From Methanospirillum sp. (lineage in GTDB: Archaea > Halobacteriota > Methanomicrobia > Methanomicrobiales > Methanospirillaceae): a DNA stretch of 64,000 bases. Below the pieces are notes generated by a model. The model was not told the origin of the DNA. It was given only the letters and a program-made list of their open reading frames with translations, and did no database searches. The DNA lies in NCBI GenBank assembly GCA_012728895.1, contig JAAYEG010000065.1, positions 7,538 to 71,537 of the forward strand, read 5' to 3'. This document shows, piece by piece, positions 3,908 through 49,100 of the stretch (positions within the stretch are counted from its first letter, which is position 1; each line of letters starts with the position of its first letter). Both the position numbers and the translations under genes were made by a program.

Positions 3908-4369
3908 TCAGGACCCCTCGATCAGTTCCTCGACGATCCCGCGCCCGGCCGGGTCGTCGGCGAAGGCGGTCTCGACCGCGGCCCGGGCGCTCTCGTCCCC
4001 GATCTTCGAGAGCGCGGCAGCGGCCATCCAGCGGCAGCACTCGTTCTCCCCGTTCAGGTTCGCGAGCAGCGAATCGAGCGCGCGGTCGTCGCCGATGTGC
4101 TCGAGTGCCCAGATCGCCGGGACCCGGACCTGGTAGTCGTCGTGCTTGGCCGCGACCACGAGCACGTCGACGGCCGGCGCGCCGATCCGCTCGAGGGCGA
4201 CGGCGGCCCGCCACCGGGTCTCGCGCTCCGACGATGCGAGCAGGGTCGCGACCGGGCTCACCGCGTCGTCGCCGTACACCGCGACCGACTGGGCGGCCTC
4301 GAGCATCTGGTAGGTCGTTCCCTGGACGAGGCTCTCGACGAGCTCGCTGACGGACTGCTGTTTCTCCAT
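3908..4369 (-). CDS. HEAT-repeat (PBS-lyase HEAT-like) protein, paralog A
   Basis: MEKQQSVSELVESL... start preceded by GGAGAGGAGAG. Repeated units RWRAAVALERIG / VRVPAIWALEHIG / CRWMAAAALSKIG. Close paralog of 20515..20976. Confidence 0.85.
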   Translation of the reverse strand: MEKQQSVSELVESLVQGTTYQMLEAAQSVAVYGDDAVSPVATLLASSERETRWRAAVALERIGAPAVDVLVVAAKHDDYQVRVPAIWALEHIGDDRALDSLLANLNGENECCRWMAAAALSKIGDESARAAVETAFADDPAGRGIVEELIEGS

Positions 4370-4417
4370 CTCTCCTCTCCTTTTGCCGATTCTTTCGACA
4401 CAACGACCTCTCTTCCG

Positions 4418-4494: not shown

Positions 4495-5091
4495 TCAGCC
4501 CAGGAGGCCCAGCAGGTCGGCGAGGCCGGACGCGACGGCAAGGCCGAAGAGCCCGAGGACCCACGCCACCGTCAGGTAGAGCACGAGGGCGACCACGGCC
4601 ACGGCCACGGCCTTCCCGGCATCCACCGCGTAGAGCTTCTGGACGCCGATGACGGTCAGGGCGACCGCCCAGAGCTGGGAGAGAAGCCAGCCGACGACCG
4701 GGATCCAGCCGAACAGCAGGTACGGGGTCTGGGCGTAGACGGCCACCCGGAACGCGTCGGCGAACTCGCCCCGCCCCCCGAGGGAGTTCGCCCCGATCTG
4801 GAGCACGATCGCCCAGATCACCAGGGTGAAGAGCCCCCAGGCGCAGGTGAAGGCCAGGGCCCAGACGAACGACATCAGGCCGTCCTCCGGCCCGGTGCTG
4901 ATCCCGAGGGCGCTTCCATCCATCACGGAGAACCCCAGGGAGACCATCACCCCGGCGAGGATCGACATCACGGCGAGCAGCAGCAGGTAGTAGACCGCAG
5001 CGTCGGCCACCGGCTCGTGCCGGACGGCGTGGAACGTTTCAGCGGGGCGCACGAGGAAGCCGGCGATCTTGGCGGCGAACGATGGTGCCAT
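4495..5091 (-). CDS. Yip1-domain integral membrane protein, paralog A
   Basis: 198 aa. N-terminal cytosolic segment IAGFLVRPAETFHAVRHEP followed by about 5 hydrophobic helices. Paralog of 6567..7214. Confidence 0.8.
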   Translation of the reverse strand: MAPSFAAKIAGFLVRPAETFHAVRHEPVADAAVYYLLLLAVMSILAGVMVSLGFSVMDGSALGISTGPEDGLMSFVWALAFTCAWGLFTLVIWAIVLQIGANSLGGRGEFADAFRVAVYAQTPYLLFGWIPVVGWLLSQLWAVALTVIGVQKLYAVDAGKAVAVAVVALVLYLTVAWVLGLFGLAVASGLADLLGLLG

Positions 5092-5333
5092 GCAGTAGCA
5101 TGCACGAACCCCGATAGAAAGGTTCCGATTCGCTGTTCCAACGGCGATACGGACGGTAAAAGAGTCTCGTGGTCACGGACGGGGTCCACGGTCGCCGGGG
5201 GAGAGCGCCACGGAAGAGGCAGGGGGTTCGCGATGGGGCGTCCCGGGACGATGGGCGCTGGCGCGGGCGAGATCAACGGGCCCGCCCGGGTGCGAGCCCG
5301 CGCTGCCGCCCGAAGGAGCGTCTTTCCGTGACC

Positions 5334-6470
5334 CTACTCGACCACCAGGGTCCCCATCCGGTGCGGGCTCGGGACCCCGCAGGCGATCACGTAGCGCCCG
5401 GGAGCGGCGGGTGCGGTGAAGGTGTATTCCACGACGGCCGGCCCCTTCACGGGGGCGCCCTCGAAGATCGGGTCGTCCCAGTCCTCGTCGGCGAAGATGG
5501 AGACGCTGTGCGTCGTCCAATCACGGTTGTCGAAGACGAGCGTCACCCGGGCGCCTGCCGGGACGGTGAGCGTGGACGGGGAGAACCCCGATTCGGGGTT
5601 GGATGAGTCCGCGACGAGCTCGACGGTGACCGCGGGTGGCGGTGTCGCGGTCGCCGTGGGAGACGGTGTCGCGGTCGCCGTGGGGGACGGTGTCGGCGCG
5701 GCGGTATCGCCGCCGATGAGCCCCGCCAGGATCGCGCGGTTCGCGGCGGCGTCCGCCCCGAACGCCTCCGAGGAGAGGAGGGCGGCGAAGAGGTCCATCG
5801 CCGTCCCGGCCTCCCGGACGACCGCGTCCCGGTCGCCGGCCGTGACCGCGCCGTAGGCGAGCGCGGAGTGCTGCCACCCCCTGGCGCAGGTCGCGAACTC
5901 GTCCATGTAGGCCCCCTTCGCCTCCAGGATCGGCACGATCAGGGCCGTGTAATCCGTGCCGTCGCCGAACGCGGTCCCTGAGTAGGAGGCCGCGAGGAGC
6001 GTCGACCTCGCGCGTTCGAAGAGTGTGCTCGACGACTCGAAGACCCCGGCCGCCTCGCCGAACCGGGCAGCGGCCGCCGCGTAGTCTCCTTCGTCCATCA
6101 GGACGCGGCCCTCGGCGTAGGTGTCCGCCCCCGCGTACATCGCGAGCGCGGCGTCGGCGAGGTCGACGTACGCGGCTGAGATCGACCGGATCAGCGCCAG
6201 GTTCGCCGCGTTTTCCGGGTCGTCCACCGCAGCGGCGGCCTCGAGGCAGGCGGCGTACGCCCCCCGCGCCCCGGCCAGGTTCTGCCGGATCTCCCCGACC
6301 TCGCTCGCGCTCCAGGCCCGCGCCCAGGAGTCGCCGGCGGCCGCGTAGAGCGTCCGGACGTCGTCGTAGGTCGGGCCGGCGGGCGCCGCGGCGCACGGGG
6401 CGGTCGAGAGGGCGAGGGCGATCGCGATCGCGAGGGCGAGCGTCGCCGGGAAAAGGTTGCGGCCTGACAT
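5334..6470 (-). CDS. secreted two-domain protein: Ala-rich helical N-domain, Pro/Thr linker, C-terminal cupredoxin-like domain
   Basis: Start chosen at MSGRNLFPATLALAIAIALALSTAPCAAA (signal peptide). Linker is PTPSPTATATPSPTATATPPP. C-terminus is TLTVPAGARVTLVFDNRDWTTHSV...GRYVIACGVPSPHRMGTLVVE, a His...Cys...His...Met pattern. Confidence 0.7.
   Translation of the reverse strand: MSGRNLFPATLALAIAIALALSTAPCAAAPAGPTYDDVRTLYAAAGDSWARAWSASEVGEIRQNLAGARGAYAACLEAAAAVDDPENAANLALIRSISAAYVDLADAALAMYAGADTYAEGRVLMDEGDYAAAAARFGEAAGVFESSSTLFERARSTLLAASYSGTAFGDGTDYTALIVPILEAKGAYMDEFATCARGWQHSALAYGAVTAGDRDAVVREAGTAMDLFAALLSSEAFGADAAANRAILAGLIGGDTAAPTPSPTATATPSPTATATPPPAVTVELVADSSNPESGFSPSTLTVPAGARVTLVFDNRDWTTHSVSIFADEDWDDPIFEGAPVKGPAVVEYTFTAPAAPGRYVIACGVPSPHRMGTLVVE
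5641..5699. repeat. 24-nt tandem repeat (2.4 copies) encoding the Pro/Thr/Ala linker
   Basis: ggtgtcgcggtcgccgtggg(a/g)gac is repeated at 5641..5664 and 5665..5688, with a partial third copy. Confidence 0.85.
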
Positions 6471-6566
6471 GGCATGGGGATCGCCCGCTGAGGATATAAG
6501 CTTTGACCATGGGGGATTCACGGTCCCCCCGGCCCGGACGGTCGGCGATGCAGAGAGAAGAGGGGG

Positions 6567-7214
6567 TCAGGTGGAGACGACGGTCACCACCGGGAGCGGC
6601 CCTCCCGAGCTCGAGAAGATTCCGAAGAGGGCGAAGAGCGCCACCCCGATCACGACGGCCAGGATCACCAGGATGAGCAGGATGATCCCGATCGCGATCA
6701 CGACGGCGATGATGGCCCGCCCGGTGTCGAGCTCGTGGAGTTCGCGCACCCCCAGGACGAGCAGCACCACGGACCAGATAAAGAAGACCAGGCCCAGGAT
6801 CCAGCCGATCACGGGGATGATCACGAGCCAGCCGAGGAGCATGGACGGGGTCAGGGAGTAGACCGACGACTTGAGCGAGTCGGCGAAGTCCCCGCGGCCC
6901 CCCGCGAACCGGGCGCCGACGTGCAGGAAGACCGAGAGGACGATCAGCACGACGATGCCGCCGATAAACGCGGCGACCAGGCTGCCGACGAAGTCCAGCG
7001 CCCCGGTGGTCGCGCCGATGCCGAAGGTGGACTCCACCGACTCGACGGCACTGAACCCGAGGACCGAGAGGACGGCGGTGATGAGCGCGTTGATCACCAG
7101 CAGGACCAGGAAGTAGATCCCGGCGTCGACCACCGTCTCGTCCCTGGCATCGCGGAACGTCCCGACGGGCCGTAGGATGAAGCCGACGAGCTTCTCTGTC
7201 AGCGGGATAGCCAT
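6567..7214 (-). CDS. Yip1-domain integral membrane protein, paralog B
   Basis: MAIPLTEKLVGFILRPVGTFRDARDE aligns with the paralog A N-terminus. The ATG at 7214 lies ~27 nt downstream of a TTATAT box, which suggests a leaderless transcript. The ORF-track start at 7235 is less likely. Confidence 0.8.
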   Translation of the reverse strand: MAIPLTEKLVGFILRPVGTFRDARDETVVDAGIYFLVLLVINALITAVLSVLGFSAVESVESTFGIGATTGALDFVGSLVAAFIGGIVVLIVLSVFLHVGARFAGGRGDFADSLKSSVYSLTPSMLLGWLVIIPVIGWILGLVFFIWSVVLLVLGVRELHELDTGRAIIAVVIAIGIILLILVILAVVIGVALFALFGIFSSSGGPLPVVTVVST

Positions 7215-7238
7215 ATCCTGAGCATGGGAATCCATCAG

Positions 7239-7244
7239 ATATAA
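7239..7244 (-). promoter_or_regulatory. TATA-like box for leaderless Yip1 paralog B
   Basis: Minus-strand TTATAT is centred ~27 nt upstream of ATG 7214. Confidence 0.4.
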
Positions 7245-7304
7245 GGCCGCGCCCCGCCGGATCCTGCCGAATCCTTGATAAACCCCCGCCGCGATCGGTT
7301 ATCC

Positions 7305-18118: not shown

Positions 18119-18568
18119 ATGGCGTTCCTCGACGATGCCTCCCGGTTCACCACCCGCAGGGGACTCTGCCCGTCGTCGACGACCGAGGCGGCCATCACGA
18201 CCCTCGAGACCGGGTTCGCGCGATACGGTGTCCCGAACGAGATCCTGACGGATCACGGCTCCCGGTTCGTCCCGGACCAGCAGGCCGAGACCACGCATCA
18301 TGCCTTCGGACGGTTCCTGGAACACCATGCCATTCGGCAGACCGTCGCCAGACGGAACCATCCGCAGACGAACGGGAGGATCGAACGCTTTTTCAGGGAG
18401 ATCGACCGGTTGATCGCGGCAGGCTTTTCCATGGACGATGTCGTCGACCGGCAGAACAGAATCAAACCACATGCCGGTCTGGACTATAAGGTGCCCGAAA
18501 CGGTCTTCCTTGAACGATTGCCACCGGAACGGATCTTCGGGTACGCACAGGGGTGGTTGTGTGAGTGA
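18119..18568 (+). mobile_element. truncated DDE transposase/integrase (rve core) remnant
   Basis: FLDDASRF...ILTDHGSRF...NHPQTNGRIERFF (second Asp and Glu of DDE). It lacks the HTH N-terminus and the first catalytic Asp region. No inverted repeats were identified. Confidence 0.75.
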
Positions 18569-18641: not shown

Positions 18642-19961
18642 ATGGACCACACGAACACGCGGGTCGTTTTCCTGCTCTTTATCGCGGCGGTGCTCCTGCT
18701 GCTGGCACCCGCCGTCGGGGGTTCCCCGCCCCTCGCCTGGCAGAACGAGACCGTGGATTCCACGTGGTACGCCGGGAAGTACACGTCCCTGGCGCTGGAC
18801 GGCGACGGCAGACCCCGGATCAGCTACTGGGACGAGACGAACGGGGACCTGAAATTCGCGTGGCTCAACAGCGCCGGATGGCACACCGAGACGGTGGATT
18901 CGGAAGGATACGTCGGACTGTGGACATCCCTGGCGCTGGACGAGGTCGATGCCCCCCGCATCAGCTATTACGATGGTATGAATCACGACCTGAAGTACGC
19001 GTGGCGCGACAGCACGGACTGGTACACCGAGACCGTGGATGCGGCAGGAAATGTCGGCGAATACACCTCCATGGCGCTCGACGGTCACAACAAACCCCAC
19101 ATCGGTTACCGCGATGAGTGGAACGGGGATCTCAGGTACGCATGGCACAACGGCTCCGGCTGGGAGATCGAGACGGTGGATGGGGGATCCGCCGGACTCT
19201 ATTCATCCCTGGCTCTGGACAGCGCCGGCAACCCTCACTTCAGCTACCTGGGCGGTTACGGAGATTACGACCTGAAGTACGCGTGGCGCGACGGCACGGG
19301 CTGGCAGATCGAGACGGTCGAATCCGAGGGGGACTTCCGGGAGACCTCGCTTGCTCTGGACGTTTGCGGTTCACCCCGGATCAGTTACTGTTTCAACAAA
19401 CCCGGCGATTATCTGAACCACGACCTGAAGTACGCGTGGCGCGACGGCACGGGCTGGCACACGGAGACGGCGGATCCGGCGGGCAATGCAGGGATGTGGT
19501 CATCCCTCGCGCTTGACCGCGCCGGCGACCCCTGGATCAGCTACCTCGACCTGACACACCAGGAACTGAAACTCGCATGGCACAACAGCACCGGCTGGTA
19601 TAACCAGACGGTGGATTCGGAGTGTTTCGTCGGGGAGTGGACGTCCCTTTCGCTGGACAGTAACGACAGGCCCCGCATCAGTTATTGCAACGTGACCGGA
19701 TACAACCTGAAATACGCGTGGGCCGACAGAGCCCCGGCGGTGACGGCAATCCCCGGCGGCGCGGGCGTCCCCACCGACACCGACGGCGACGGGCTCTACG
19801 ACGACGTGAACGGTAATGACCGCGCCGACTTCGCGGACGTGGTGCTGTACTTCGTCGGGTTGACCTGGATCGCGGAGAACCAGCCGCTCGCCGGGTTCGA
19901 CTTCAACAACAACGGGCGGGTCGACTTCGCGGACGTCGTCTGGCTCTTCAACGACCTCTGA
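18642..19961 (+). CDS. secreted protein with seven ~45-aa repeats (predicted beta-propeller) and a C-terminal dockerin-like module
   Basis: Signal peptide VVFLLFIAAVLLLLAPAVGG. Seven units fit W-x-x-ETVDS-x-G-x-VG-x-YTSLALD-x-x-G-x-PRISYYD...DLKYAW. The tail is DTDGDGLYDDVNGNDRADFADVV...DFNNNGRVDFADVVWLF. Confidence 0.85.
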   Translation: MDHTNTRVVFLLFIAAVLLLLAPAVGGSPPLAWQNETVDSTWYAGKYTSLALDGDGRPRISYWDETNGDLKFAWLNSAGWHTETVDSEGYVGLWTSLALDEVDAPRISYYDGMNHDLKYAWRDSTDWYTETVDAAGNVGEYTSMALDGHNKPHIGYRDEWNGDLRYAWHNGSGWEIETVDGGSAGLYSSLALDSAGNPHFSYLGGYGDYDLKYAWRDGTGWQIETVESEGDFRETSLALDVCGSPRISYCFNKPGDYLNHDLKYAWRDGTGWHTETADPAGNAGMWSSLALDRAGDPWISYLDLTHQELKLAWHNSTGWYNQTVDSECFVGEWTSLSLDSNDRPRISYCNVTGYNLKYAWADRAPAVTAIPGGAGVPTDTDGDGLYDDVNGNDRADFADVVLYFVGLTWIAENQPLAGFDFNNNGRVDFADVVWLFNDL

Positions 19962-19966
19962 CCTTC

Positions 19967-19971
19967 TTTTT
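19967..19971 (+). terminator. T-rich tract after repeat-protein stop
   Basis: TGA at 19959..19961 is followed by ccttcTTTTTcc. Confidence 0.35.
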
Positions 19972-20425
19972 CCACCCCCTGGTCGCGGGACGGACCCCGT
20001 TCCGGAGCGGACCGAGCCGTGCGGGCGCCTGGCGGTTCGACGACGGCGCACGGTCGCGGAAGATCCGGGTTTCACGCGGTCCTGCCAGGATCGGGACGCA
20101 CCTGCCGTGCCGGGTGAAGACCCTGGTCCGGACCGGCCCCCGGACCCGTCTCGATAACGGCCCGTCCCGGCGAGGGAGGACCGGGAGTGCCCCGCGACCG
20201 CCCCCGTTTTTTTGGCGCCGGCAACCGGGTCTGCTCTTCCGCCTCCACCCGTTCGCTGCGCCGGGCTCACGGTCCGGGAGCCCCGGGCGCGCCACCGCAT
20301 GGACCCGCCCCCCCTCTTCTTTCGGCATGGGACCCGCGCGGTTCACGGGACCGCCCCCCCGTCCGCCGTGCCCGGGCCCCGCCCGCCGGGCCGGCGACGG
20401 GTACTGCCGGTCATTATTGCCCGGC

Positions 20426-20456
20426 GACGTCGGCTGGCAAAAATCCATTATATTCC
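20426..20456 (+). promoter_or_regulatory. conserved promoter-like motif upstream of HEAT paralog B
   Basis: GACGTCGGCTGGCAAAAATCCATTATATTCC is near-identical to the minus strand of 4418..4446. Confidence 0.5.
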
Positions 20457-20514
20457 CCGCGAGAGGTGGGATCGCCGAGAGACTCGGTCAGGCAGGAACA
20501 GGAGGAGGAGAGAG

Positions 20515-20976
20515 ATGGAGAAGAAACAGGCAGTGAACGACCTCGTGACCAGGCTCGTGGAGGGGACCACCTACCAGATGCTCGAGGCCGCCCAGGCGGC
20601 CGGGGAACACGGCGGGGACGCGGTCGGTCCGATCGCGGCGCTGATCTCCTCGGCCGACCGGGAGACCCGGTGGCGGGCCGCCGTCGCCCTCGAGCGGATC
20701 GGCGCGCCGGCGGTCGAGGCGCTGGTCTCGGCCGCCGCGAGCGAGGACTACCTGGTCCGCGTGCCGGCGATCTGGGCGCTCGAGCATATCGGGGACCCGC
20801 GCGGCATGGACGTCCTCTACACGAACCTGGAGGGCGAGAACGAGACCTGCCGCTGGATGGCCGCCGCCGCCCTCAGCCGGATCGGCGGGGACCAGGGGAG
20901 GACGGCCGTCGACCGGGCGTTCGCAGACGACCCGACGGGCCGCGGCATCGTCGAGGAGCTGATCGAGGGGTCCTGA
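20515..20976 (+). CDS. HEAT-repeat (PBS-lyase HEAT-like) protein, paralog B
   Basis: MEKKQAVNDLVTRLVEGTTYQMLEAAQ...GRGIVEELIEGS. Same length (153 aa) as 3908..4369 and collinear with it. Confidence 0.85.
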   Translation: MEKKQAVNDLVTRLVEGTTYQMLEAAQAAGEHGGDAVGPIAALISSADRETRWRAAVALERIGAPAVEALVSAAASEDYLVRVPAIWALEHIGDPRGMDVLYTNLEGENETCRWMAAAALSRIGGDQGRTAVDRAFADDPTGRGIVEELIEGS

Positions 20977-21275
20977 GACAGGGGGGGGCAGCGTCCCCCG
21001 GCCCGTCCCGGGGATCCCCCGGGCGCGGCTCACCGCCGGGCCGGACGTCCCGCCCCGCACCTCTTTTTGAGAGCCGGCTTTTGGGGGATCGCACGCGGCG
21101 GCCCCCGTCCCCGGCCGGTACGTCGGGCCCGGGTGGAGGCGGTGGGCGGCGTGCCGCAGAGTGCGGTTCGCGTCCCGGGGAACGCGCCGGTCACCCCGCC
21201 GGGCGGTAGCCACGGGGGTACCCGGCGCGCCCGGTCCCCGGAAGGTATATCGAGGATGAGGTCGTCTCCCCGACC

Positions 21276-21692
21276 ATGACGGCGACACCGGCCGGCCCGG
21301 TCGCGGGGAGCGGGGAGGTGTCCCGGGGGTCTTCCACGGCGCTGTTGGGGCCGATCACCCCGGTCCAGCTCGCGGCCCTCTTCGTCTTCCTGCTCCTCTC
21401 GGTGGTCGACGTCGTCCTCTCGACCTACCTGATCTTCGGCGCGGGGGGCTACGTCGAGAGAAATCCCCTGCTCGCCTGGGCGAGCGGGAGTACCCTCTCC
21501 TTCATCCCGGCGGCGATGGGCGTCAAGGCGATCGGGGCCGGGTGGCTCGCCCTGCTGGTCTCTTTCGCGAACCGCTTCTCCACGCTCGCCGGCCACGCGG
21601 TGCTCGCCGCGGCGATCGGCACGACCGCCATCGTCCTGCTCGTCATCGCCGCGGGGGCAGTCACGACCCTGCTCGCCGCCGTCGGCATCTGA
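21276..21692 (+). CDS. small polytopic membrane protein (E-R-N-P motif; possibly DUF5658-type)
   Basis: About 4 hydrophobic helices with YVERNPLLAW between helices. A GTATAT box lies ~27 nt upstream of the ATG, which suggests a leaderless transcript. Confidence 0.65.
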   Translation: MTATPAGPVAGSGEVSRGSSTALLGPITPVQLAALFVFLLLSVVDVVLSTYLIFGAGGYVERNPLLAWASGSTLSFIPAAMGVKAIGAGWLALLVSFANRFSTLAGHAVLAAAIGTTAIVLLVIAAGAVTTLLAAVGI

Positions 21693-21739
21693 GGCTCCCG
21701 GTCGGGGCTTCCCCGGCCGGATCCCGGGGAAGGGGGGGG

Positions 21740-23046
21740 TCACAGGTTGTTGAAGAGCCAGGCCACGTCGGCGAAGTCGACCCGCCCGTTCCCGTTGCAG
21801 TCGAAGAGGACGACCGGCTCGTTCGCGGCGATCCATGCCATCTGGTTGAAGTAGAGCACGACGTCCGAGAAGTCGGCGCGGGTGTTGCCGTTCACGTCGT
21901 CGTAGAGCCCGTCGGCGTCCGTGTCCGTCGGCACGCCGATGCCGCCTGGGACCATCGTCACCGGATTCAGGTCGGCCCACGCGTACTTCAGGTCGTAATT
22001 CGAGAAATCGTAGTAACTGATCCGGGGGTTGCCAGCCCCGTCCAGCACCAGCGACGTGTACACTCCCTGTTCTCCGCCCCCGTCCACGGTCTCGGTGTGC
22101 CAGCCCGTGCCGTCGCGCCAGGCGTACTTCAGGAGCTTGTTGCCCACGACCGTATAGTCCTGGTAACTGATTCGCGGAGAGCCCGTCCCGTCCAGCGCCA
22201 GGGACGGGTGCCTTCCGACAGTTCCTTCCGAGTCCACCGTCTCGGTGTGCCAGACCGTGCCCTCGCGCCAGGCGTACTTGAGGTCCTGGTTCGTCTGGTC
22301 GAAGTAGGCGATCCGGGGGTTGCCGGCTGCGTCGAGCGCGAGTGACGAGTACGACCCGACCCATCCCTCCGAGTCCACCGTCTCGATATTCCAGGGACGA
22401 TAGGGAAAGCCTTCGTGCCAAGCGTACTTGAGATCGCCGCTCGTCCCGTCGTAATAGCTGATACCGGGAACCCCCGTGGAATCGAACCCGAGGGACGAAT
22501 CGTCCCACCCGTACCCTGCCGGGGCCACCGTCTCGATCACCCAGCTGGAGCCGATGCGGGACGCGTACTTCAGGCGGGTATTGGTCGAGTCGTAGTAGCT
22601 GATGCGGGGGAACCGGGACGCCAGCAGCGCCAGGGAGGTGTACATGCCGACCACTCCGTTCGAATCAACCGTCTCGCTGCACCAGCCGGCGCCATCGTGC
22701 CAGGCGTACTTCAACGTGGAGAACGTCCAGTTCATGTAGCTGATATGGGGGTTCCCGGCGCTGTCCAGCGCCAGGGAGGTGAACCCCCCGACCTCTCCAT
22801 CTGAATCGACCGTCCCGGTATGCCAGCCGTCAGCGTCGCGCCAGGCGTACTTCAGGTCGTAATTCGAGAGATCGAGGTAGCTGATCCACGGGGTGGCGTT
22901 CCCGTCGAGCGCCAGGGAAGAGTGGCGCCCGACATCCCCCCCGAGTCCACGGTCTCGATCTGCCATGCCAGGGCAGACGCGGTTCCGGGGACGGGCACCA
23001 GCAGCAGGGACGCGAGAACGAGCCGCCCCACGATCGCCCGGTTCAT
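21740..23046 (-). pseudogene. paralogous 7-repeat/dockerin-like secreted protein, reading frame broken at a C7 (G7 on coding strand) tract
   Basis: The signal peptide and first repeat start (MNRAIVGRLVLASLLLVPVPGTASALAWQIETVDSGG) are in one frame (track ORF 22852..23154). The rest (DVGRHSSLALDGNATPWISY...WLFNNL) is in the 21740..23416 frame. The junction is the homopolymer 22936..22942. The span is 3n+2 nt, so one extra G would restore a single ORF. Confidence 0.8.
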
Positions 23047-23675
23047 GAGCGCATGTCTGCCCATCATCCGTGAAAAAGGTGAGCATGCGAGAGCGTGGCA
23101 AGAGGCCCCCGTCACAGTGCCATGCCGACCGGGAGGCGACCACCACCCCGGCATGGATCGGCGCCGACGGGGACGGCAACCCCGGGATCGTGACCCTGTC
23201 GCTTCCGCGTGGACTCCGGAGGCAGCCCGTTTCCCCGATGGCGGGGCCGGAAAGAGGGGTCCCGCCTTCCTGATATCCCTGCATCGCGTTCTCGCCAGAC
23301 CCCCGCCTCTCTCGATCTGGGTTCCTTCGACGCGGACCTATCCGTCGTGGTTCGGGATACCGGCAACCGGCTGGTGTTTTCCGAGAAGTGCTGCGCAAAC
23401 CCCGTGACTGGTGCATCGACCCGGATCGTCGAAGGCAACGGCGTCGTCGTCTCCCCCGGCGATATCCCGGGGCGGCGACGGAGCACGGGATCGCCGGACG
23501 GTAGCTGGGGAGTTGCTCCGGCAGTCGAACAACCGGAAAGGGTTTTTAGTATCGGTACGAAAGGACGGTCCAGTCGATCCGCTGTACTATCAGCACCGCG
23601 AATCCCTGCGTGATCGCATTTTCCGTGCTCTCCCCCTGGCTGATCCGACAGAGACGAACCGAATGGTGATGACAG

Positions 23676-24908
23676 ATGTTCGTCAGGACCATTACCACCA
23701 TCTCCGAGCTCGACAACCTCGTGAGCCTGACACCTGGAGAACGCAGAGGGATGGAAGAGGTATGCGAGACCTTCCCGTTCCGTGTCAACGACTACTACCT
23801 GTCCCTCATCGACTGGACGGACGATCGGGACCCCCTGCGCAGGATCGTCATTCCCGACCCGAGGGAACTGGAAGGAGGGGGCTCGCTCGATCCCTCGTCC
23901 GAACGAAAGTTCACGAAAATACCCGGGCTCCAGCACAAGTACCGGCAGACCGGGCTCCTGCTCCTCTCCGACGTGTGCGGCGGGATCTGCCGGTTCTGCT
24001 TTCGTAAGCGACTGTTCGTCAACCGGGAACGGGAGACCGTGGTGGACGTCTCGGAAGGAATCGACTATATCCGCGCCCACCCCGAGATCACCAACGTTCT
24101 TTTGACAGGCGGAGACCCTTTCTCCCTGGATACCCGCAGGCTGGAGACGGTCCTGAAGGAACTTTTCGAGATCGAGCACGTCGGCATCGTCCGGATCGGG
24201 ACCAAGATGCTGGCCTACAACCCCTACCGGTTCCTCGACGACCCCTCGCTCCCGGAGGCCCTCTCGCGCTTCAGAACGCCCGGGAAGCGGATCTACGTCA
24301 TGGCCCACTACGACCACCCGGGAGAGATAACGGGGCCGTCGGTGCAGGCGGTGGACCTCCTGCAGCAGTCCGGGGCAGTGGTCGTCGACCAGACCCCGGT
24401 CCTCAATGAAGTGAACAGCGATCCCGGCGTCTTCACCGGGCTGTTCCGAACACTGTCGTTTGCCGGCATCGCCCCGTACTACGTGTTCCAGTGCCGTCCC
24501 TCGCTCGGCAACCGGTCCTTCCAGACCCCGGTCGAGCATTCGTTCAGGATCGTCCAACAGGCGTGGGCGAGGTGTTCCGGCCTGGCCAAACGCGCCCGGT
24601 TCGTCATGTCCCATGCCACCGGCAAGATCGAGGTGATCGGTAAGACGGCGACCCACGTCTTCATGCGCTACCACCAGGCGGCAGATCCTGCCGATGTCGG
24701 CAGGACGCTGGTCTACCGGTCAAGTCCCCTGGCGAGATGGTTCGATGAGTATCTGCACCAGCCGGATCATGCCGGGGACCTGTGCTCCCCGGGGGCCCGG
24801 AACATGCGGCAGCCCAATTCACCGGTTTTTTCGAGGTTTTGTCGAAAAGCCGGACCGTGCCGGCCGGATCTATCGGGTGGTCCGGGGCAGGCGACATGCC
24901 GGCGCTGA
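23676..24908 (+). CDS. KamA-family radical SAM protein (lysine 2,3-aminomutase-like)
   Basis: CGGICRFCFRKR (CxxxCxxC). N-terminal FRVNDYYLSLIDWTDDRDPLRRIVIP. NVLLTGGDPFSL. GGTGAT lies upstream of the ATG. Confidence 0.85.
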   Translation: MFVRTITTISELDNLVSLTPGERRGMEEVCETFPFRVNDYYLSLIDWTDDRDPLRRIVIPDPRELEGGGSLDPSSERKFTKIPGLQHKYRQTGLLLLSDVCGGICRFCFRKRLFVNRERETVVDVSEGIDYIRAHPEITNVLLTGGDPFSLDTRRLETVLKELFEIEHVGIVRIGTKMLAYNPYRFLDDPSLPEALSRFRTPGKRIYVMAHYDHPGEITGPSVQAVDLLQQSGAVVVDQTPVLNEVNSDPGVFTGLFRTLSFAGIAPYYVFQCRPSLGNRSFQTPVEHSFRIVQQAWARCSGLAKRARFVMSHATGKIEVIGKTATHVFMRYHQAADPADVGRTLVYRSSPLARWFDEYLHQPDHAGDLCSPGARNMRQPNSPVFSRFCRKAGPCRPDLSGGPGQATCRR

Positions 24909-34315: not shown

Positions 34316-35134
34316 ATGTTCAGGTTCGACGAGACCAGGACCTACCGGATGCCGCCCTTCTTCGGCGGAACCGCCCCGGCGGCTCCGGACTTCGCGGTCC
34401 GGAACCGCGACGCGACCGCCATGGCGTTCACCTGCACCACGGACGAAGAGATGCTCGCGCAGCACGTCCCCGAGTGCTTCGAGATCCTGCGGCCCGAGGT
34501 GGTCTACACCTTCGGCCAGCTCCGGGAGATCGACTGGCTCGCCGGGGGGCGGTACAACGTCGTCACGGCCGACGTGCCGGTCCGGTTCAACGGGACGCGT
34601 GACCGGCTCGAGGGGAACCTGAACCTGGTCACCTGGGAGAACCTGGCCACCCCGATCATCGGGGGGCGGGAAGAGAACGGCGTCCCGAAGATCTACGCCG
34701 AGATCCAGGACCTGCACGCGGGGGCAGCGGGCTACCTCGGCGCGCCCGACTACTTCACCAACGCGAGCTACGACGGCAACACCTTCGTCAGGATGGAGAT
34801 GCGGGACCCGGTCCCCGTGGAGGGGGAGCGGCTCGCGGCCCTGAAGGCCGCGATGGCCACCGTCAACCTCCTCTGCTGGCGCTACATCCCGAACGTCAGC
34901 GGCCCCGGGGCGGCGCTGAGCCAGCCGATCCTGTACCCCCAGGGGGCCGAGGTGCACAGCGCCTGGACGGGGACGGGCTCGGTCGAGTGGATCCGGCTCG
35001 CGCCCTGGCAGAACCCGATGCAGCACCACATCGTCAACGCCCTCGCGGACCTCCCGATCCTGGCGATGGCCCCCGTGATGCTGGTGCAGAGCACCGCCGT
35101 GCTGAAGCCGAGCCAGGGGCGGGTGCTGGAGTAG
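34316..35134 (+). CDS. acetoacetate decarboxylase (ADC) family protein 1
   Basis: DVPVRFNGTRDRLEGNLNLVTWENLATPIIGGREENGVPK aligns with the clostridial Adc region PVSFNG...EPAIAVGRELSAYPKK (Schiff-base Lys). C-terminal AWTGTGSVEW resembles AWTGPTRLQL. Confidence 0.8.
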   Translation: MFRFDETRTYRMPPFFGGTAPAAPDFAVRNRDATAMAFTCTTDEEMLAQHVPECFEILRPEVVYTFGQLREIDWLAGGRYNVVTADVPVRFNGTRDRLEGNLNLVTWENLATPIIGGREENGVPKIYAEIQDLHAGAAGYLGAPDYFTNASYDGNTFVRMEMRDPVPVEGERLAALKAAMATVNLLCWRYIPNVSGPGAALSQPILYPQGAEVHSAWTGTGSVEWIRLAPWQNPMQHHIVNALADLPILAMAPVMLVQSTAVLKPSQGRVLE

Positions 35135-35186
35135 GCCTGCCCGGGACGCGGGCGGGAAACACGATCCACCACCGGAGGACTATCAC

Positions 35187-36023
35187 ATGAACAACCAGGG
35201 CTACTACACGGACAGGATCTGCATCGTAACGGGCGCGAACTCCGGCATCGGGTACGCGCTCAGCGAGGAACTGCTGAAGCGGGGCGCGACCGTCTACCTG
35301 CTCGGGCGGGACCCGGCGAAGGTCGCGGCCGCCGCCGGCAAACTCTCGTCGCACGGGGACCGGGTGCGGACCCTCGTCGCGGACGTGACGGACTGGGAAC
35401 AGGTGCGGACGGCGATCGAGGGCGCGGCAGCGGAGGCCGGAAGGCTGGACATGCTCTTCAACAACGCCGGCATCGGCGGCACCCTGCAGTTCGAGAAGGC
35501 GACCCTCGAGGACTGGAAGAAGATCATCGAGACCAACGTCTGGAGCGTGGTCTACGGCGTGCACGCGGCCTTCCCGATCATGCTCCGGCAGGGCTCGGGC
35601 CACATCGTGAACACCAGCTCGGCGGCCGGCATCGTCCCCCCGCCGTTCCAGGCGCTCTACTCGCTCACCAAGTTCGGCGTCACCGGCATGACCGAGTGCC
35701 TGCGGTACGAGTTCGCGGAGAAGGGGCTCTTCTTCTCGACGATCTGTCCGACCAACATCGCGACGCCCATCTTCCAGAGGTCGGCCGACGGCCCGGTGAA
35801 CGAGAAAGCGCCGATCCCCGACGACGCCTATCCCGTGGACCGGGCGGCCGTCGAGATCCTGGACGCGGTCGCCGAGCGGAAGGGGGTCATCGTCGTGCCC
35901 GAGGAGCCGGGCACGGCTGTCTGGCGGGGATGGGCCGCGGGAGACCCCGAGACGGAGGCGTATCTCATGCAGATGGCGCACGACCGCCGGGTCGCGTACG
36001 AGACGAAGGGGTCGTACTTCTGA
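35187..36023 (+). CDS. short-chain dehydrogenase/reductase (SDR), type a, copy 1
   Basis: TGANSGIGYA, NNAG and SSAAG...YSLTK (Ser-Tyr-Lys). Confidence 0.9.
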   Translation: MNNQGYYTDRICIVTGANSGIGYALSEELLKRGATVYLLGRDPAKVAAAAGKLSSHGDRVRTLVADVTDWEQVRTAIEGAAAEAGRLDMLFNNAGIGGTLQFEKATLEDWKKIIETNVWSVVYGVHAAFPIMLRQGSGHIVNTSSAAGIVPPPFQALYSLTKFGVTGMTECLRYEFAEKGLFFSTICPTNIATPIFQRSADGPVNEKAPIPDDAYPVDRAAVEILDAVAERKGVIVVPEEPGTAVWRGWAAGDPETEAYLMQMAHDRRVAYETKGSYF

Positions 36024-36042
36024 GGGCGGCGCTGGGGGGACC

Positions 36043-36897
36043 ATGGAGACCGGCGACTACTACCAAAAAAAGGTCTGCATCGTCACGGGCGCGAACTCCG
36101 GCATTGGGTACGCGCTCTCGGAGGAGCTGCTGAAGCGCGGCGCGACCGTCTACCTGCTCGGGCGCAACGCGGCGAAGGTCGCGGAGGCGGCCGGAAAGCT
36201 CGCGGCGCACGGGGACCGGGTGCGCACCCTGGTCGCGGACGTGACGGACGGGGCGCAGATGCGGGCGGCCGTCGAGGGCGCGGCAGCGGAGGCCGGCCGG
36301 CTCGACCTGCTCTTCAACAACGCCGGCGTCGGCCTGACCGTCCCGTTCGAGCGGATCGGCCTTGACGAGATGCGGGCGGTCATCGACGCCAACCTCTGGA
36401 GCGTGCTCTACGGGACGCACGCCGCCGTGCCGATCATGCTCCGGCAGGGCTCGGGCCAGATCGTCAGCACCTCGTCGATCGGCGGGCTCATCCCGGTGCC
36501 GTTCCAGTCACTGTACAACACGACCAAGTTCGCCGTCACCGGGCTCTCCGAGTCGTTGCGGTACGAGTACGCGGCGCGGGGGATCTCGTTCTCGGCCGTC
36601 TGCCCGTTCTTCATCGCGTCGGCCATCTTCAGCAAGGGCCTCGACGGCAGCACGGGCGACCAGGGGATCCCCGCCGGCGCCTACCCCGCGGACCGTGCCG
36701 CGGCCTTCATCCTCGACCGCGTCGCCGAACGGCAGGGGATCATCGTCGTGCCCGAGGAGCCGTTCCTCGGGCTCTGGCGGGAGTACGCGAACGGCGATCC
36801 GGGCATGGAGGCGTTCATGCTGGAGACCGCGAGGATGCGTGGGCAGCAGGTGGAACGGGGCGAGACGCCGACGGCGGTGCCGCCGCTCCCCCCATGA
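36043..36897 (+). CDS. short-chain dehydrogenase/reductase (SDR), type b, copy 1
   Basis: TGANSGIGYA, NNAG and SSIGG...YNTTK. Confidence 0.9.
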   Translation: METGDYYQKKVCIVTGANSGIGYALSEELLKRGATVYLLGRNAAKVAEAAGKLAAHGDRVRTLVADVTDGAQMRAAVEGAAAEAGRLDLLFNNAGVGLTVPFERIGLDEMRAVIDANLWSVLYGTHAAVPIMLRQGSGQIVSTSSIGGLIPVPFQSLYNTTKFAVTGLSESLRYEYAARGISFSAVCPFFIASAIFSKGLDGSTGDQGIPAGAYPADRAAAFILDRVAERQGIIVVPEEPFLGLWREYANGDPGMEAFMLETARMRGQQVERGETPTAVPPLPP

Positions 36898-36934
36898 CGC
36901 CGGGAGGCGGACGACAGGAGTGGAGGTGATCCGT

Positions 36935-37729
36935 ATGTTCGAGATCGATGATTCCCTCGACTACACCATGCCGGCGCACTTCGGCGGCACGGAGCTGGTG
37001 CCCGGGCACGTGGCCACGCAGCGCGTGACCGCCCTGGTGATCGCGTACGAGACCGACCGGGCGCTCCTCGAGGCGTTCGTCCCCCGTGAGTTCACGCTCC
37101 GCGCCCCGGAGGTGCAGGTGATGTTCGCCACGTTCGCCGGGGTCAACTGGCTGGCCGGCGCGCGGTACAACCTGGTCAACGTCTCGGCGCCCGTCCGGTT
37201 CGACGGGAGCAGGGACCACCTGGACGGCGATTACACGCTCGTCACCTGGGAGAACAGCACCGAGCCGATCCTGCGGGGACGGGAGCAGTCCGGGGTCCCC
37301 AAGGTCTACGCGGAGATCCAGGACCTGCGCGAGGTCGGGCCGTATTACTCCACGAACGCGAGCTTCGCGGGAAACACCTTCCTCTCCCTGGAGTTCGAGT
37401 CCGCGGGCCCGCTGGCGGGAAGCGAGCTCGGGGAGGTGCGGGCCGGGATGGCGACCCTGAACACCATCGGCTGGCGGTACATCCCCCGGATCAACGGCCC
37501 GGGAGCGGACCTCTCGCAGTTCGTGCTCTTCCCGCAGGGGCTGGACCTCGAGCGGGCCGAGGCGGGGGCGGGGAGCCTGCGCTGGACCGCGCTCTCCTGG
37601 ATGCAGCACCCGACGCAGCACCGGATCATCGAGGGCCTGGCCTCTCTGCCGGTGGAGCGGGTGACGCGGGCGGTGCTGGGGGAGGGGACCGGCGTGCTCG
37701 ACCGCCTTGGTTCGCGCCTGCTCGAGTGA
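36935..37729 (+). CDS. acetoacetate decarboxylase (ADC) family protein 2
   Basis: ATG after GGAGGTGAT. SAPVRFDGSRDHLDGDYTLVTWENSTEPILRGREQSGVPK. Collinear with 34316..35134. Confidence 0.8.
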   Translation: MFEIDDSLDYTMPAHFGGTELVPGHVATQRVTALVIAYETDRALLEAFVPREFTLRAPEVQVMFATFAGVNWLAGARYNLVNVSAPVRFDGSRDHLDGDYTLVTWENSTEPILRGREQSGVPKVYAEIQDLREVGPYYSTNASFAGNTFLSLEFESAGPLAGSELGEVRAGMATLNTIGWRYIPRINGPGADLSQFVLFPQGLDLERAEAGAGSLRWTALSWMQHPTQHRIIEGLASLPVERVTRAVLGEGTGVLDRLGSRLLE

Positions 37730-37778
37730 CCCGGCGCCGAAAACCACGAGAATGAACCAGAACTCAAAGGAGAATACA

Positions 37779-38615
37779 ATGACCAACCAGGACTACTACA
37801 AGGAGAAGATCTGCATTGTCACGGGCGCGAACTCGGGGATCGGGTACGCGCTCAGCGAGGAACTGCTGAAGCGCGGCGCGACCGTCTACCTGCTCGGACG
37901 CGACCCGGGAAAGGTCGCGGCCGCCGCCAAAAAACTCTCGTCGCACGGGGACCGGGTGCGCACGCTCGTCGCGGACGTGACGGACGGGGCGCAGGTGCAG
38001 CGGGCCATCGAGGGCGCGGCGGCGGAAGCCGGCCGGCTGGACATGCTCTTCAACAACGCCGGCATCGGCGGGACCATGCAGTTCGAGAAGGCCACGCTCG
38101 ACGACTGGAAAAAGTTGATCGATACGAACATCTGGAGCGTCATCTACGGCGTCCACGCGGCCCTCCCGATCATGCTCCGGCAGGGCTCGGGCCATGTCGT
38201 GAACACCAGCTCGGCCGCGGGCATCTTCCCTCCGCCGTTCCAGGCGCTGTACTCACTATCCAAGTTCGGCGTCACCGGCATGACCGAGTGCCTCCGGTAC
38301 GAGTTCGCTGAGAAGGGGCTGGCCTTCTCGACGGTCTGTCCCTCCAACATCGCGACGCCGATCTTCCAGAAGTCTCCCGATGGCACGGTCCACGACCAGC
38401 TGCCGATACCCGACGACGCCTATCCCGCGGACAGGACGGCCGTCGAGATCCTGGACGCGGCCGCGGAGCGGAAAGGGGTCATCGTCGTGCCCGAGCAGCC
38501 GGGTACCGATATCTGGCGGGGATGGGCGGCGGGGGACCCCGGGACGGAGGCGTTCCTGATGCAGATGGCGCACGACCGGCGCGTCGCGTACGAGACGAAG
38601 GGGTCGTACTTCTGA
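37779..38615 (+). CDS. short-chain dehydrogenase/reductase (SDR), type a, copy 2
   Basis: MTNQDYYKEKICIVTGANSGIGYA after AAGGAG. YSLSK. Most residues identical to 35187..36023. Confidence 0.9.
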   Translation: MTNQDYYKEKICIVTGANSGIGYALSEELLKRGATVYLLGRDPGKVAAAAKKLSSHGDRVRTLVADVTDGAQVQRAIEGAAAEAGRLDMLFNNAGIGGTMQFEKATLDDWKKLIDTNIWSVIYGVHAALPIMLRQGSGHVVNTSSAAGIFPPPFQALYSLSKFGVTGMTECLRYEFAEKGLAFSTVCPSNIATPIFQKSPDGTVHDQLPIPDDAYPADRTAVEILDAAAERKGVIVVPEQPGTDIWRGWAAGDPGTEAFLMQMAHDRRVAYETKGSYF

Positions 38616-38640
38616 GCGCGGCCCGCGGAAGGGGACGACG

Positions 38641-39474
38641 ATGGACGCGAGCGACTACTACCGGGAGAAGATCTGCATCGTCACGGGCGCGAACTCCGGC
38701 ATCGGGTTCGCGCTCTCGGAGGAACTGCTCAAGCGCGGCGCGACCGTCTATATGCTCGGGCGCGACCCCGCGAAGGTCGCCGGCGCCGCCGGAAAACTCT
38801 CGTCGCACGGAAGCCGGGTGCGGACCCTCGTCGCGGACGTGACGGAGCAACAGCAGGTGCAGGCGGCGGTCGAGGGGGCGGCGGCGGAGGCCGGCCGGCT
38901 CGACATGCTCTTCAACAACGCGGGGATCTTCCGGCCCCAGCTCTACGAGACGGCCACGCTCGGGGACTGGCAGACCATGATCGAGACCAACCTCTGGAGC
39001 GTGATCTACGGCGTCCACGCCGCCCTGCCGATCATGCTCCGGCAGGGCTCGGGCCACGTCGTGAACACCGCGTCGGTGGCCGGCCTGGACCCGTTCCCGA
39101 TGCAGGAGATCTACAACACCACGAAGTACGCGGTCGTCGGGCTCTCCGAGAGCCTGCGGTACGGGTTCGCGGAGAAGGGGATCGCCTTCTCCGTGATCTG
39201 CCCCGGCGACATCGCGACCCCGATCTACTCCAAGGTGACCGACCGCGAGGGCCGCGGGACAGAGACCCCCGCCCACGCGTACCCCGCCGATGCCGCGGCC
39301 ACGTACTCCCTCGACCGGGTGGCGGAGCGGAAGGGGATCGTCGTCGTGCCCGAACAGCCGTACACCGACCTCTGGAGGGGGTACGTGGTGGGAGATCCGG
39401 GCGTGGAGGCCATGCTCGTCCGGATGGCGCACGACCGCAGGGTGCTGCTCGAGACAAGGGGGACGTATATCTGA
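38641..39474 (+). CDS. short-chain dehydrogenase/reductase (SDR), type b, copy 2
   Basis: TGANSGIGFA, NNAG and YNTTK. Confidence 0.9.
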   Translation: MDASDYYREKICIVTGANSGIGFALSEELLKRGATVYMLGRDPAKVAGAAGKLSSHGSRVRTLVADVTEQQQVQAAVEGAAAEAGRLDMLFNNAGIFRPQLYETATLGDWQTMIETNLWSVIYGVHAALPIMLRQGSGHVVNTASVAGLDPFPMQEIYNTTKYAVVGLSESLRYGFAEKGIAFSVICPGDIATPIYSKVTDREGRGTETPAHAYPADAAATYSLDRVAERKGIVVVPEQPYTDLWRGYVVGDPGVEAMLVRMAHDRRVLLETRGTYI

Positions 39475-48083: not shown

Positions 48084-49100
48084 AGGTGTCTCCTCGGAAG
48101 GGGTAGGAGTTATCAGCGGGACCCGCGGTTGACGGTGAACTCCATCACCGATCGTACTCAGGCGTGCGGCAACGTCAATCTTCGCGCCGGAGCCGGTCGG
48201 AACCATCCCGGGACCCTCTGCGCAGGGCCCTGTGCGGCCAGCCTGGAGGGGGGGGGGCGATCCGCGAGATCGCGAAGGCCCGGTCCCTCGATTGTTTCGA
48301 GCTCCCCGAGCAGGGAGAGCCCGGCGAGGACGTGGCCGGCCAGGAAGACTCTCGCAAACGAGCCGCCCGTTCCCCGGAGAAACCGGGTGAGTGCGACCCT
48401 TGCGCGGTCGGCCGCGACAGGCCCCCGCCGCCATCGGGCGACGAGGGCGTGCCGGGTATCGGCCGCGTCGGCTCGGGGAGCCGCCAGAAGCGGTTCCCGC
48501 CCACGCCGCAGCCGTTGCGGCGGCACACCGGGGGACCGCCGGCTGTCCGGGGAGAAGGGGCAGCGTGCGTGCCCCGGCAGGAGTCACCCGCCTCGCGGGG
48601 GTCCCGGGGCGGACCCCATCGCCTCCGGTGACCGATGGCGCGGTACCGGGACAAGGCTGTCCCCCTGCTGGAACGCCCTCCTCGCCTGGTGATGATGAAC
48701 GTGCAATCGGCGCCGAGGGGGCCGTGGTCACCATGAGGTCGACCCGTCACGGGCACGCTCCGCCGGAAGAGATCGCGACAGGCCTTGAGGGCGTCCCTGT
48801 CCTGATCCCGGCCCCCGGCATGACGATCGAAAACCCTGGCCCGGGGGATGCCGGCGCATGAACGAGGGGTGACGGCATCGATGAGAGGAAGAAGATCCCT
48901 GCTACCGCCTGGAGCAGGTGAACCGTCCCCTCGCGCCCTCATCGCGAGTCGGTCACTCGAGGGGCTCCGCCTCGCGACAGGCGGTACCAGCGACGCGATA
49001 CGGAGGAGCGCCGATGCGCGCCCTGCCGATCCTCACGTCGATGGGATCCGGCCCACGGATGGAGAAACCTACAAGCGTACTGACGTTGTGGGGATCTACG

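Follow-up and report, generated by a model that had tools for sequence, protein, structure and literature searches.

Dockerin modules are established in archaea that lack cellulosomes, where they have been described in Archaeoglobus fulgidus, in anaerobic methanotrophic archaea (ANME) and in some methanogens (Pfam family PF00404; PMC9012536, PMC5244752). The proteins that carry them are exported and end in a tail of about 60 amino acids with two calcium-loop/helix segments. The module sits on varied passenger domains, and no large scaffoldin is evident. Binding between archaeal cohesin-dockerin pairs has been demonstrated (cited in PMC9012536), and the role of dockerin and cohesin modules outside cellulosomes has been stated to be unknown (PMC5244752, PMC9012536). 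Nine dockerin domain matches and one cohesin domain match were reported for Methanospirillum hungatei JF-1 (PMC5244752, Table 2), and neither module was reported for Methanoregula formicica (PMC5244752). A literature search on dockerins in Methanomicrobiales or on propellers yielded comparative papers on ANME only. Here we describe two related genes, A and B, in a stretch of 64,000 nucleotides (the window) from contig JAAYEG010000065.1 of a metagenome-assembled genome (MAG) labelled Methanospirillum sp. (GCA_012728895.1). A and B join the non-cellulosomal archaeal dockerin proteins, with a passenger from a very common, unnamed and unstudied propeller family. They share with these proteins the signature of export, the length of the tail and its two calcium-loop/helix segments. 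They differ in that the passenger is an unnamed seven-bladed propeller, that the tail holds an extra overlapping DxDxDG loop, and that the tail of A scores below the Pfam threshold.

Our preferred reading, to which we assign a probability of about 0.55, is that A is a lectin-like surface protein docked through a dockerin, that B is likely a pseudogene, and that the HEAT-repeat and DUF5658 genes lying between them are unrelated. According to this model, a Sec-type signal peptide, read from the sequence, would export the protein. Seven near-identical units of 47 amino acids would then fold into a closed seven-bladed propeller, for which the structure model is confident. With the same residues in all blades, the propeller could present up to seven equivalent sites and act as a multivalent, lectin-like module for binding glycans. 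The C-terminal 60 amino acids, which show the sequence features of a dockerin-type pair of calcium-loop/helix segments, may fasten the protein to a cohesin-like receptor in the envelope, non-covalently and in a calcium-dependent manner. A is the sole intact copy; B carries a -1 frameshift in a run of seven G residues (the G7 run).

Gene A and the repeat units

Gene A lies at 18642..19961 on the + strand as an intact open reading frame (ORF) of 439 amino acids, just where a preliminary description of the window, made from the sequence, had placed the first of two paralogs. It was also called as a 439-amino-acid gene in four public assemblies. Its GC content is 0.63, with 0.83 at third codon positions (GC3). 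The putative signal peptide, MDHTNTRVVFLLFIAAVLLLLAPAVGG, covers approximately residues 1-27 (18642..18722, +). It was read from the sequence, with no dedicated predictor, as a charged n-region followed by 17-18 hydrophobic residues. In alignment it coincides with those signal peptides of relatives that end in VSA, and AlphaFold2 modelled residues 4-20 as a helix. Residues 31-362 (18732..19727, +) form seven units of 47-51 amino acids, which we assign to a seven-bladed beta-propeller from the repeat pattern, the AlphaFold2 model and Foldseek. The dockerin-like tail follows at residues 379-439 (19776..19958, +) and was delimited from its calcium-loop pattern, from Pfam and from the tails of relatives.

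Both A and B contain seven units of 47-51 amino acids, with the consensus gW..ETVDs.G.vG..tSLALD..g.PrISY..D.t.n.dLKYAWrdg; the seven units per protein and the consensus given in the preliminary description were thus borne out. Blades within each protein are 51-54% identical to one another. Between A and B, blades are 48-63% identical at the same position and 53% identical at different positions. Because blade identity within a protein equals that between A and B, selection acts on a per-blade consensus to which every blade is held. Each blade retains two Trp residues (in gW..ETVD and in KYAW), and a Tyr, an Asp and the ETVD, SLALD and PRISY motifs are likewise kept in every blade.

A and B are 55% identical to each other, and each is 62-63% identical to proteins from Methanoregulaceae or Methanosphaerula. 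A recent inverted duplication was ruled out, because each protein is closer to those of other genomes than to its counterpart in the window. We read A and B as diverged duplicates of one kind of surface-protein gene, which is common in Methanomicrobiales.

A predicted propeller from a large unnamed family

We modelled A with AlphaFold2 from 21 aligned sequences and obtained a mean predicted local distance difference test (pLDDT) score of 84. In the propeller region the score exceeded 90, and 28 strands were arranged as seven blades of four strands in a closed ring. The blade count of the model thus supports the earlier description of the repeats as propeller-like. The same description had not recognized the repeat as a named family, and this agrees with our searches, in which neither A nor B matched any Pfam or NCBIfam model.

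The best Foldseek matches of the A model were the seven-bladed PLL/PHL lectins of Photorhabdus (PDB 5c9l, 5mxg and 8q83; PMC6943638), at E values near 1e-14, template modelling (TM) scores of 0.68-0.76 by target and 12-14% sequence identity. Chromobacterium CV39L was also among the best matches. Like A, these lectins have seven four-stranded blades that are highly similar to one another, and the PLL lectins bind sugars between blades with stacking Trp residues (PMC6943638). They were not matched by sequence or profile search. At 336-354 residues, the matched PLL chains are roughly as long as the propeller by itself and so leave no room for a dockerin tail. The next matches were the GH145 protein BT3686 (5mul), whose 18% identity was the highest among the top fold matches, followed by AAL-type lectins and sialidases.

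The repeat is widespread. An exhaustive search of clusters at 50% identity returned 22,317 cluster representatives at E<=1e-3, of which 6,426 reached E<=1e-30. Matches came from Chloroflexota, Patescibacteria, Legionella, Actinomycetes, Methanomicrobiales and others. The largest of these proteins reach 6,384 amino acids and contain many propellers each. The nearest relatives of the propeller genes came from Methanoregulaceae, Methanosphaerula and Methanospirillum bins, and the best match in a scan of genome contigs was 53% identical. The Methanomicrobiales subfamily is laid out as a signal peptide, a propeller and a dockerin. Many of its members continue with PKD and CBM6/CBM35 modules and bear the NCBI name 'carbohydrate-binding protein'. 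In an alignment of 21 proteins (A, B and 19 relatives), CBM6/CBM35 follows the dockerin in nine and PKD is present in eight, while P0063, P0119 and P0047 stop at the dockerin, like A and B. The 'carbohydrate-binding proteins' of Methanoregulaceae and Methanosphaerula (P0015, P0010 and P0027, among others) share the signal peptide, propeller and dockerin with A and B at 53-63% full-length identity; they go on to PKD and CBM6/CBM35, whereas A and B stop at the dockerin. We favor multivalent glycan binding because of the high internal symmetry of the propeller, its lectin-like fold and the fusions to CBMs. The propeller is most likely a lectin-like multivalent glycan-binding module.

The dockerin-like tail

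The two canonical calcium loops lie at residues 388-399 (DVNGNDRADFAD) and 420-431 (DFNNNGRVDFAD) of A, and at residues 384-395 and 416-427 of B once its reading frame is restored (see below). In both tails the loops have D or N at positions 1, 3, 5, 9 and 12, are spaced 32 residues apart and are each followed by a hydrophobic helix pattern. A and B thus have the loop/helix layout of type I dockerins, in which tandem loops stand about 30-35 residues apart and no helix precedes the first. The tail model agrees: loop 1 is preceded by coil, and the loops are followed by helices. The residues of the canonical loops are invariant in the 75 tails of this subtype that were compared.

An extra loop, DTDGDGLYDDVN, precedes and overlaps the first canonical loop at residues 379-390 of A and 375-386 of B. 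This loop, DTD(G/A)DGLYDDVN at 19776-19811 (+) and 21890-21925 (-), also fits the pattern at positions 1, 3, 5, 9 and 12. It is largely conserved across the 75 tails, with several D, G or N positions invariant or conserved in at least 90%, and it may provide a third calcium site.

We compared the tails to the Pfam model Dockerin_1 (PF00404), whose gathering threshold is 22.9 bits. The B tail exceeded this cutoff (24.5 bits, E 3.1e-5), and 17 of the 18 tail-bearing members of the alignment matched at E<=0.01, with a best value of 1.1e-7. The A tail is 75% identical to that of B and 62-77% identical to the other tails in a second alignment, which belong to relatives that reach Dockerin_1. We call the tail dockerin-like because Pfam supports its membership in the family without confirmation from the fold. 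The dockerin-type C-terminal module proposed earlier therefore stands as regards the two calcium-loop/helix segments, the score of B and the matches of the relatives; it does not extend to a Pfam assignment of A itself, which fell below the threshold.

The same tail is found on other passengers. It is attached to a PD40/Tricorn_N protein in locus L001, and it also occurs with PKD or DUF7507 insertions. Searching with a profile of the tail subtype retrieved 432 proteins, all of them short (55-113 amino acids) and most with a precomputed PF00404 match; because only short proteins were matched, this search is uninformative about passenger domains or cohesin fusions. One of the 432 is named by NCBI 'dockerin type I domain-containing protein [Methanospirillum sp.]'. 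We inspected two tail-only calls (L028 3001-3309 and 5672-5896; L029 3001-3222), which lie on long ENA contigs among short genes on the same strand. The inspected calls of 55-113 amino acids look like fragmented gene calls rather than mini-proteins.

Gene B is frameshifted

The preliminary description had presented B as one paralog at 21740..23046 on the - strand, with a signal peptide of its own. The paralogous coding region does end at 21740, but the stretch of 1307 nucleotides is not a single reading frame. The main body of the gene (21740..22936, -) is an ORF that encodes part of blade 1, the remaining blades through blade 7 and the dockerin-like tail (21743..21925, -), which was recognized from its Pfam score and loop pattern; this body underlies the 55% identity to A. 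A 5' fragment in a different frame (22937..23046, -) encodes the putative signal peptide, MNRAIVGRLVLASLLLVPVPGTASA, together with the opening 13 residues of blade 1. The claim of a signal peptide in each protein thus holds for A, but in B the signal peptide is joined to the body only across the frameshift. The frame changes by -1 in the G7 run at 22936..22942 (C7 on the + strand), and the 5' frame, read onward, meets a stop at 22852. Adding one G to the run gives a restored B of 435 amino acids, the first unit of which is exactly 47 amino acids long. Public gene callers report B as a product of 408 amino acids that starts from an internal ATG at 22966 and lacks a signal peptide. Look-ups by exact sequence returned nothing for A, for restored B or for the product of 408 amino acids, despite the calls of these genes on public contigs, and are uninformative about an intact variant of B.

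The G7 run is identical in four independent assemblies, three from Joint Genome Institute (JGI) metagenomes and one from ENA (L024-L027), which makes a one-off sequencing error unlikely. No G8 variant of the run was present among these four assemblies. B is a frameshifted gene in this population and most likely a pseudogene.

Genes between and beside A and B

A HEAT-repeat gene and a gene for a membrane protein with an E-R-N-P motif had been noted between the two paralogs, and Pfam confirmed both. The HEAT-repeat gene (20515..20976, +) encodes 153 amino acids and matches HEAT_2 at E 2.9e-15. The membrane protein (21276..21692, +; 138 amino acids) carries the ERNP motif and matches DUF5658 with 25.5 bits, just over the cutoff of 25.2. 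Their products are identical to NLX49942.1, named 'HEAT repeat domain-containing protein' by NCBI, and to NLX49943.1, respectively, both from a MAG labelled 'Methanospirillum sp.' Ahead of gene A is a truncated rve integrase, the remnant of an insertion sequence (18119..18568, +; Pfam rve, E 7.1e-9, profile positions 21-102 only). It ends 73 nucleotides upstream of gene A and appears as a 149-amino-acid gene in public assemblies. The gene next to B (23676..24908, +) encodes a radical-SAM protein of 410 amino acids that scores 28.1 bits against Radical_SAM, for which the threshold is 29.5. This protein carries a CxxxCxxC motif (CGGICRFCF), which we take to resemble that of the lysine-2,3-aminomutase-like group.

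We examined whether these neighbors are conserved by tblastn against 23 related loci (E<=1e-3) and by inspecting three further contexts (P0063, P0119 and P0010). No homologue of the HEAT, DUF5658, radical-SAM or rve genes was found near the propeller genes in the 23 loci. All four were also absent from the three inspected contexts, where the propeller genes stand alone among unrelated genes. GC3 was 0.955 in the HEAT gene and 0.94 in the DUF5658 gene, within the range of core genes (0.94-0.97). Lower values were obtained for the rve fragment (0.78), the radical-SAM gene (0.81), A (0.83) and B (0.87). The low GC3 of the rve fragment, A, B and the radical-SAM gene hints at horizontal acquisition. 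Taken with the absence of these neighbors from related loci and the closer kin of A and B in other genomes, the GC3 values suggest that resident genes came to be flanked by A and B through two separate arrivals, possibly with mobile DNA. We regard the HEAT and DUF5658 genes as probable, unrelated bystanders.

A second HEAT gene lies 16 kb away at 3911..4372 (-) and is 71% identical to the one between A and B. It adjoins genes for two Yip1-domain membrane proteins and a cupredoxin-like protein (4495-5172, 5334-6521 and 6567-7298, all -).

Alternative explanations and significance

Several results weigh against our reading of A as a docked, lectin-like protein. The A tail scored 15.6 bits against Dockerin_1 (E 0.019), under the cutoff. 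Modelled alone, the tail reached a pLDDT of 71.6 (about 50 within the full-length model) and gave no Foldseek match to the PDB at E<=0.001; EF-hands and dockerins (2vn5_D, 6kg9) appeared at E values of 1.5-6, which are not significant. The tail profile matched PDB sequences weakly, with EF-hand proteins (E 0.02) slightly ahead of the dockerins 2ccl_B (0.09), 2y3n_B (0.19) and 1ohz_B (0.5). A Pfam scan of 34 window proteins detected no cohesin, in agreement with the earlier remark that no cohesin-like partner was recognized in the window, and none occurred among the precomputed Pfam matches of genes listed beside three relatives. On the side of the propeller, the lectin assignment draws on domain fusions and on a resemblance in fold to proteins of 12-14% identity, and propellers of many functions look alike. 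No natural propeller was matched when PDB sequences were searched with A alone (phmmer) or with the family profile. The family profile hit CBM6 modules in relatives and also designed TIM barrels, which we take to be matches driven by composition or repeats.

Some of these results would suit a tail that is a generic EF-hand-like calcium-binding pair, which could stabilize the protein or bind the envelope without a cohesin, on a protein that is perhaps simply secreted. The PDB matches to EF-hand proteins and the missing cohesin would both fit, as would a weak Pfam EF-hand_1 match in the tail and the third loop, which is not present in canonical dockerins; the function of non-cellulosomal dockerins is, moreover, among the things stated as unknown (PMC5244752). 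We nevertheless regard this explanation as unlikely, because the first loop lacks a preceding helix, as in the F-hand of dockerins and unlike an EF-hand, because the module is C-terminal on exported proteins with several passenger domains, because Dockerin_1 is the best Pfam family for the tail, and because binding has been demonstrated for archaeal cohesin-dockerin pairs. Less likely still, in our judgment, is an enzymatic role, with the propeller as a carbohydrate-active glycoside hydrolase or lyase of the sialidase, BNR_4 or GH145 kind, in a layout that copies cellulosomal enzymes, with a catalytic module, a dockerin and, in relatives, a CBM. The good fold match to BT3686 and those to sialidases could be read in this way, as could the propeller-dockerin-PKD-CBM6 order of the relatives and the fact that 6 of the 21 aligned proteins reach BNR_4 (PF15892) at E<=0.01. 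These BNR_4 matches, however, are summed weak hits to a single blade-sized stretch of the profile, and some relatives reach DUF7253 in the same manner. A and B themselves had no BNR_4 match at E<=1 and no Asp-box (S-x-D-x-G-x-T-W), strict or relaxed. Their blades are near-identical, unlike those of enzyme propellers, and the retention of the same residues in all seven is easier to reconcile with a series of binding sites than with a single asymmetric active site. For gene B, we considered whether the gene is still alive, with full-length protein made by -1 slippage, ribosomal or transcriptional, on G_GGG_GGG, or with the length of the run serving as an on/off switch. Read in the upstream frame, the run formally fits the X_XXY_YYZ heptamer. 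A -1 shift restores the exact 47-amino-acid first unit, the downstream frame is still uninterrupted, its repeats are intact and its dockerin exceeds the Pfam threshold, and the run is the same in all four assemblies. Against this, the predicted hairpin begins just 2 nucleotides past the run, and its folding energy does not surpass that of shuffled sequence (z -0.54, with 61 of 200 shuffles folding equally well), which leaves a frameshift-stimulating RNA structure downstream of the run unsupported. The lack of a G8 variant and the abundance of homopolymers of at least seven bases (30 in the window) also argue against a switch, and a plain frameshift mutation is the simpler account. We consider slippage or switching very improbable. 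The least credible possibility is the one raised in the preliminary description, that both propeller genes, together with the HEAT and DUF5658 genes between them, make up one functional cell-surface module for display or adhesion. The four genes do sit within 4.4 kb, in the same arrangement in four assemblies of the same organism. Set against this are the absence of HEAT and DUF5658 homologues near propeller genes in the 23 related loci and the three further contexts, a HEAT paralogue in the window with no adjacent propeller gene, the codon composition of the HEAT and DUF5658 genes, which differs from that of A and B, the intergenic gaps of 553 and 299 nucleotides, and the cytoplasmic type of the HEAT repeat. 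Cell-surface display or adhesion remains reasonable for A as an exported propeller with a dockerin-like tail; the four-gene unit is unsupported, and B is frameshifted.

We also entertained a broader version of our preferred reading, which we hold to be doubtful as a whole. The 47-amino-acid unit would define a very large unnamed family of highly symmetric seven-bladed propellers that bind glycans multivalently, Methanomicrobiales would display these and other passengers through a three-loop dockerin on a putative envelope receptor, and the run in B would be a slippage switch. If the preferred reading of A as a docked lectin-like protein is true, A would add a further example of methanogens whose envelope is decorated with binding proteins held by a dockerin. 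Such a case would bear on the attachment of these archaea to partners or to polymers within anaerobic digesters. Current understanding is not overturned. The propeller repeat is very common in bacteria and archaea, yet it has neither a family model nor a studied member; a binding assay and a structure of a small member such as A would let thousands of proteins be annotated.

Setting of the locus and other features of the window

The window has a GC content of 69% and contains ordinary chromosomal genes, including those for EF-2, aspartyl-tRNA synthetase, PAS histidine kinases, an MMPL transporter and glycosyltransferases. The genome of Methanospirillum hungatei has a GC content of about 45%. 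Given this value, we take the MAG label 'Methanospirillum sp.' to mean Methanomicrobiales only. The locus of A and B, 8.4 kb in length, was also found in the three JGI metagenomes and the ENA assembly mentioned above, and the three JGI copies show 0-1 substitutions.

Two further regions of the window drew our attention. A fluoride riboswitch (RF01734, 53.5 bits) at 48097-48158 (-) lies 14 nucleotides upstream of the first in-frame start (GTG at 48083) of a dynamin-family GTPase gene (46314-48083, -; Dynamin_N, E 1.9e-28). To our knowledge, genes for dynamin-like GTPases are not usually regulated by fluoride. Downstream of it on the same strand are genes for an ABC ATPase and an ABC-2 permease. 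Elsewhere, within 34316-39474 (+), four successive short-chain dehydrogenase genes (35187-36023, 36043-36897, 37707-38615 and 38641-39474) come after an acetoacetate-decarboxylase-like gene on the same strand.

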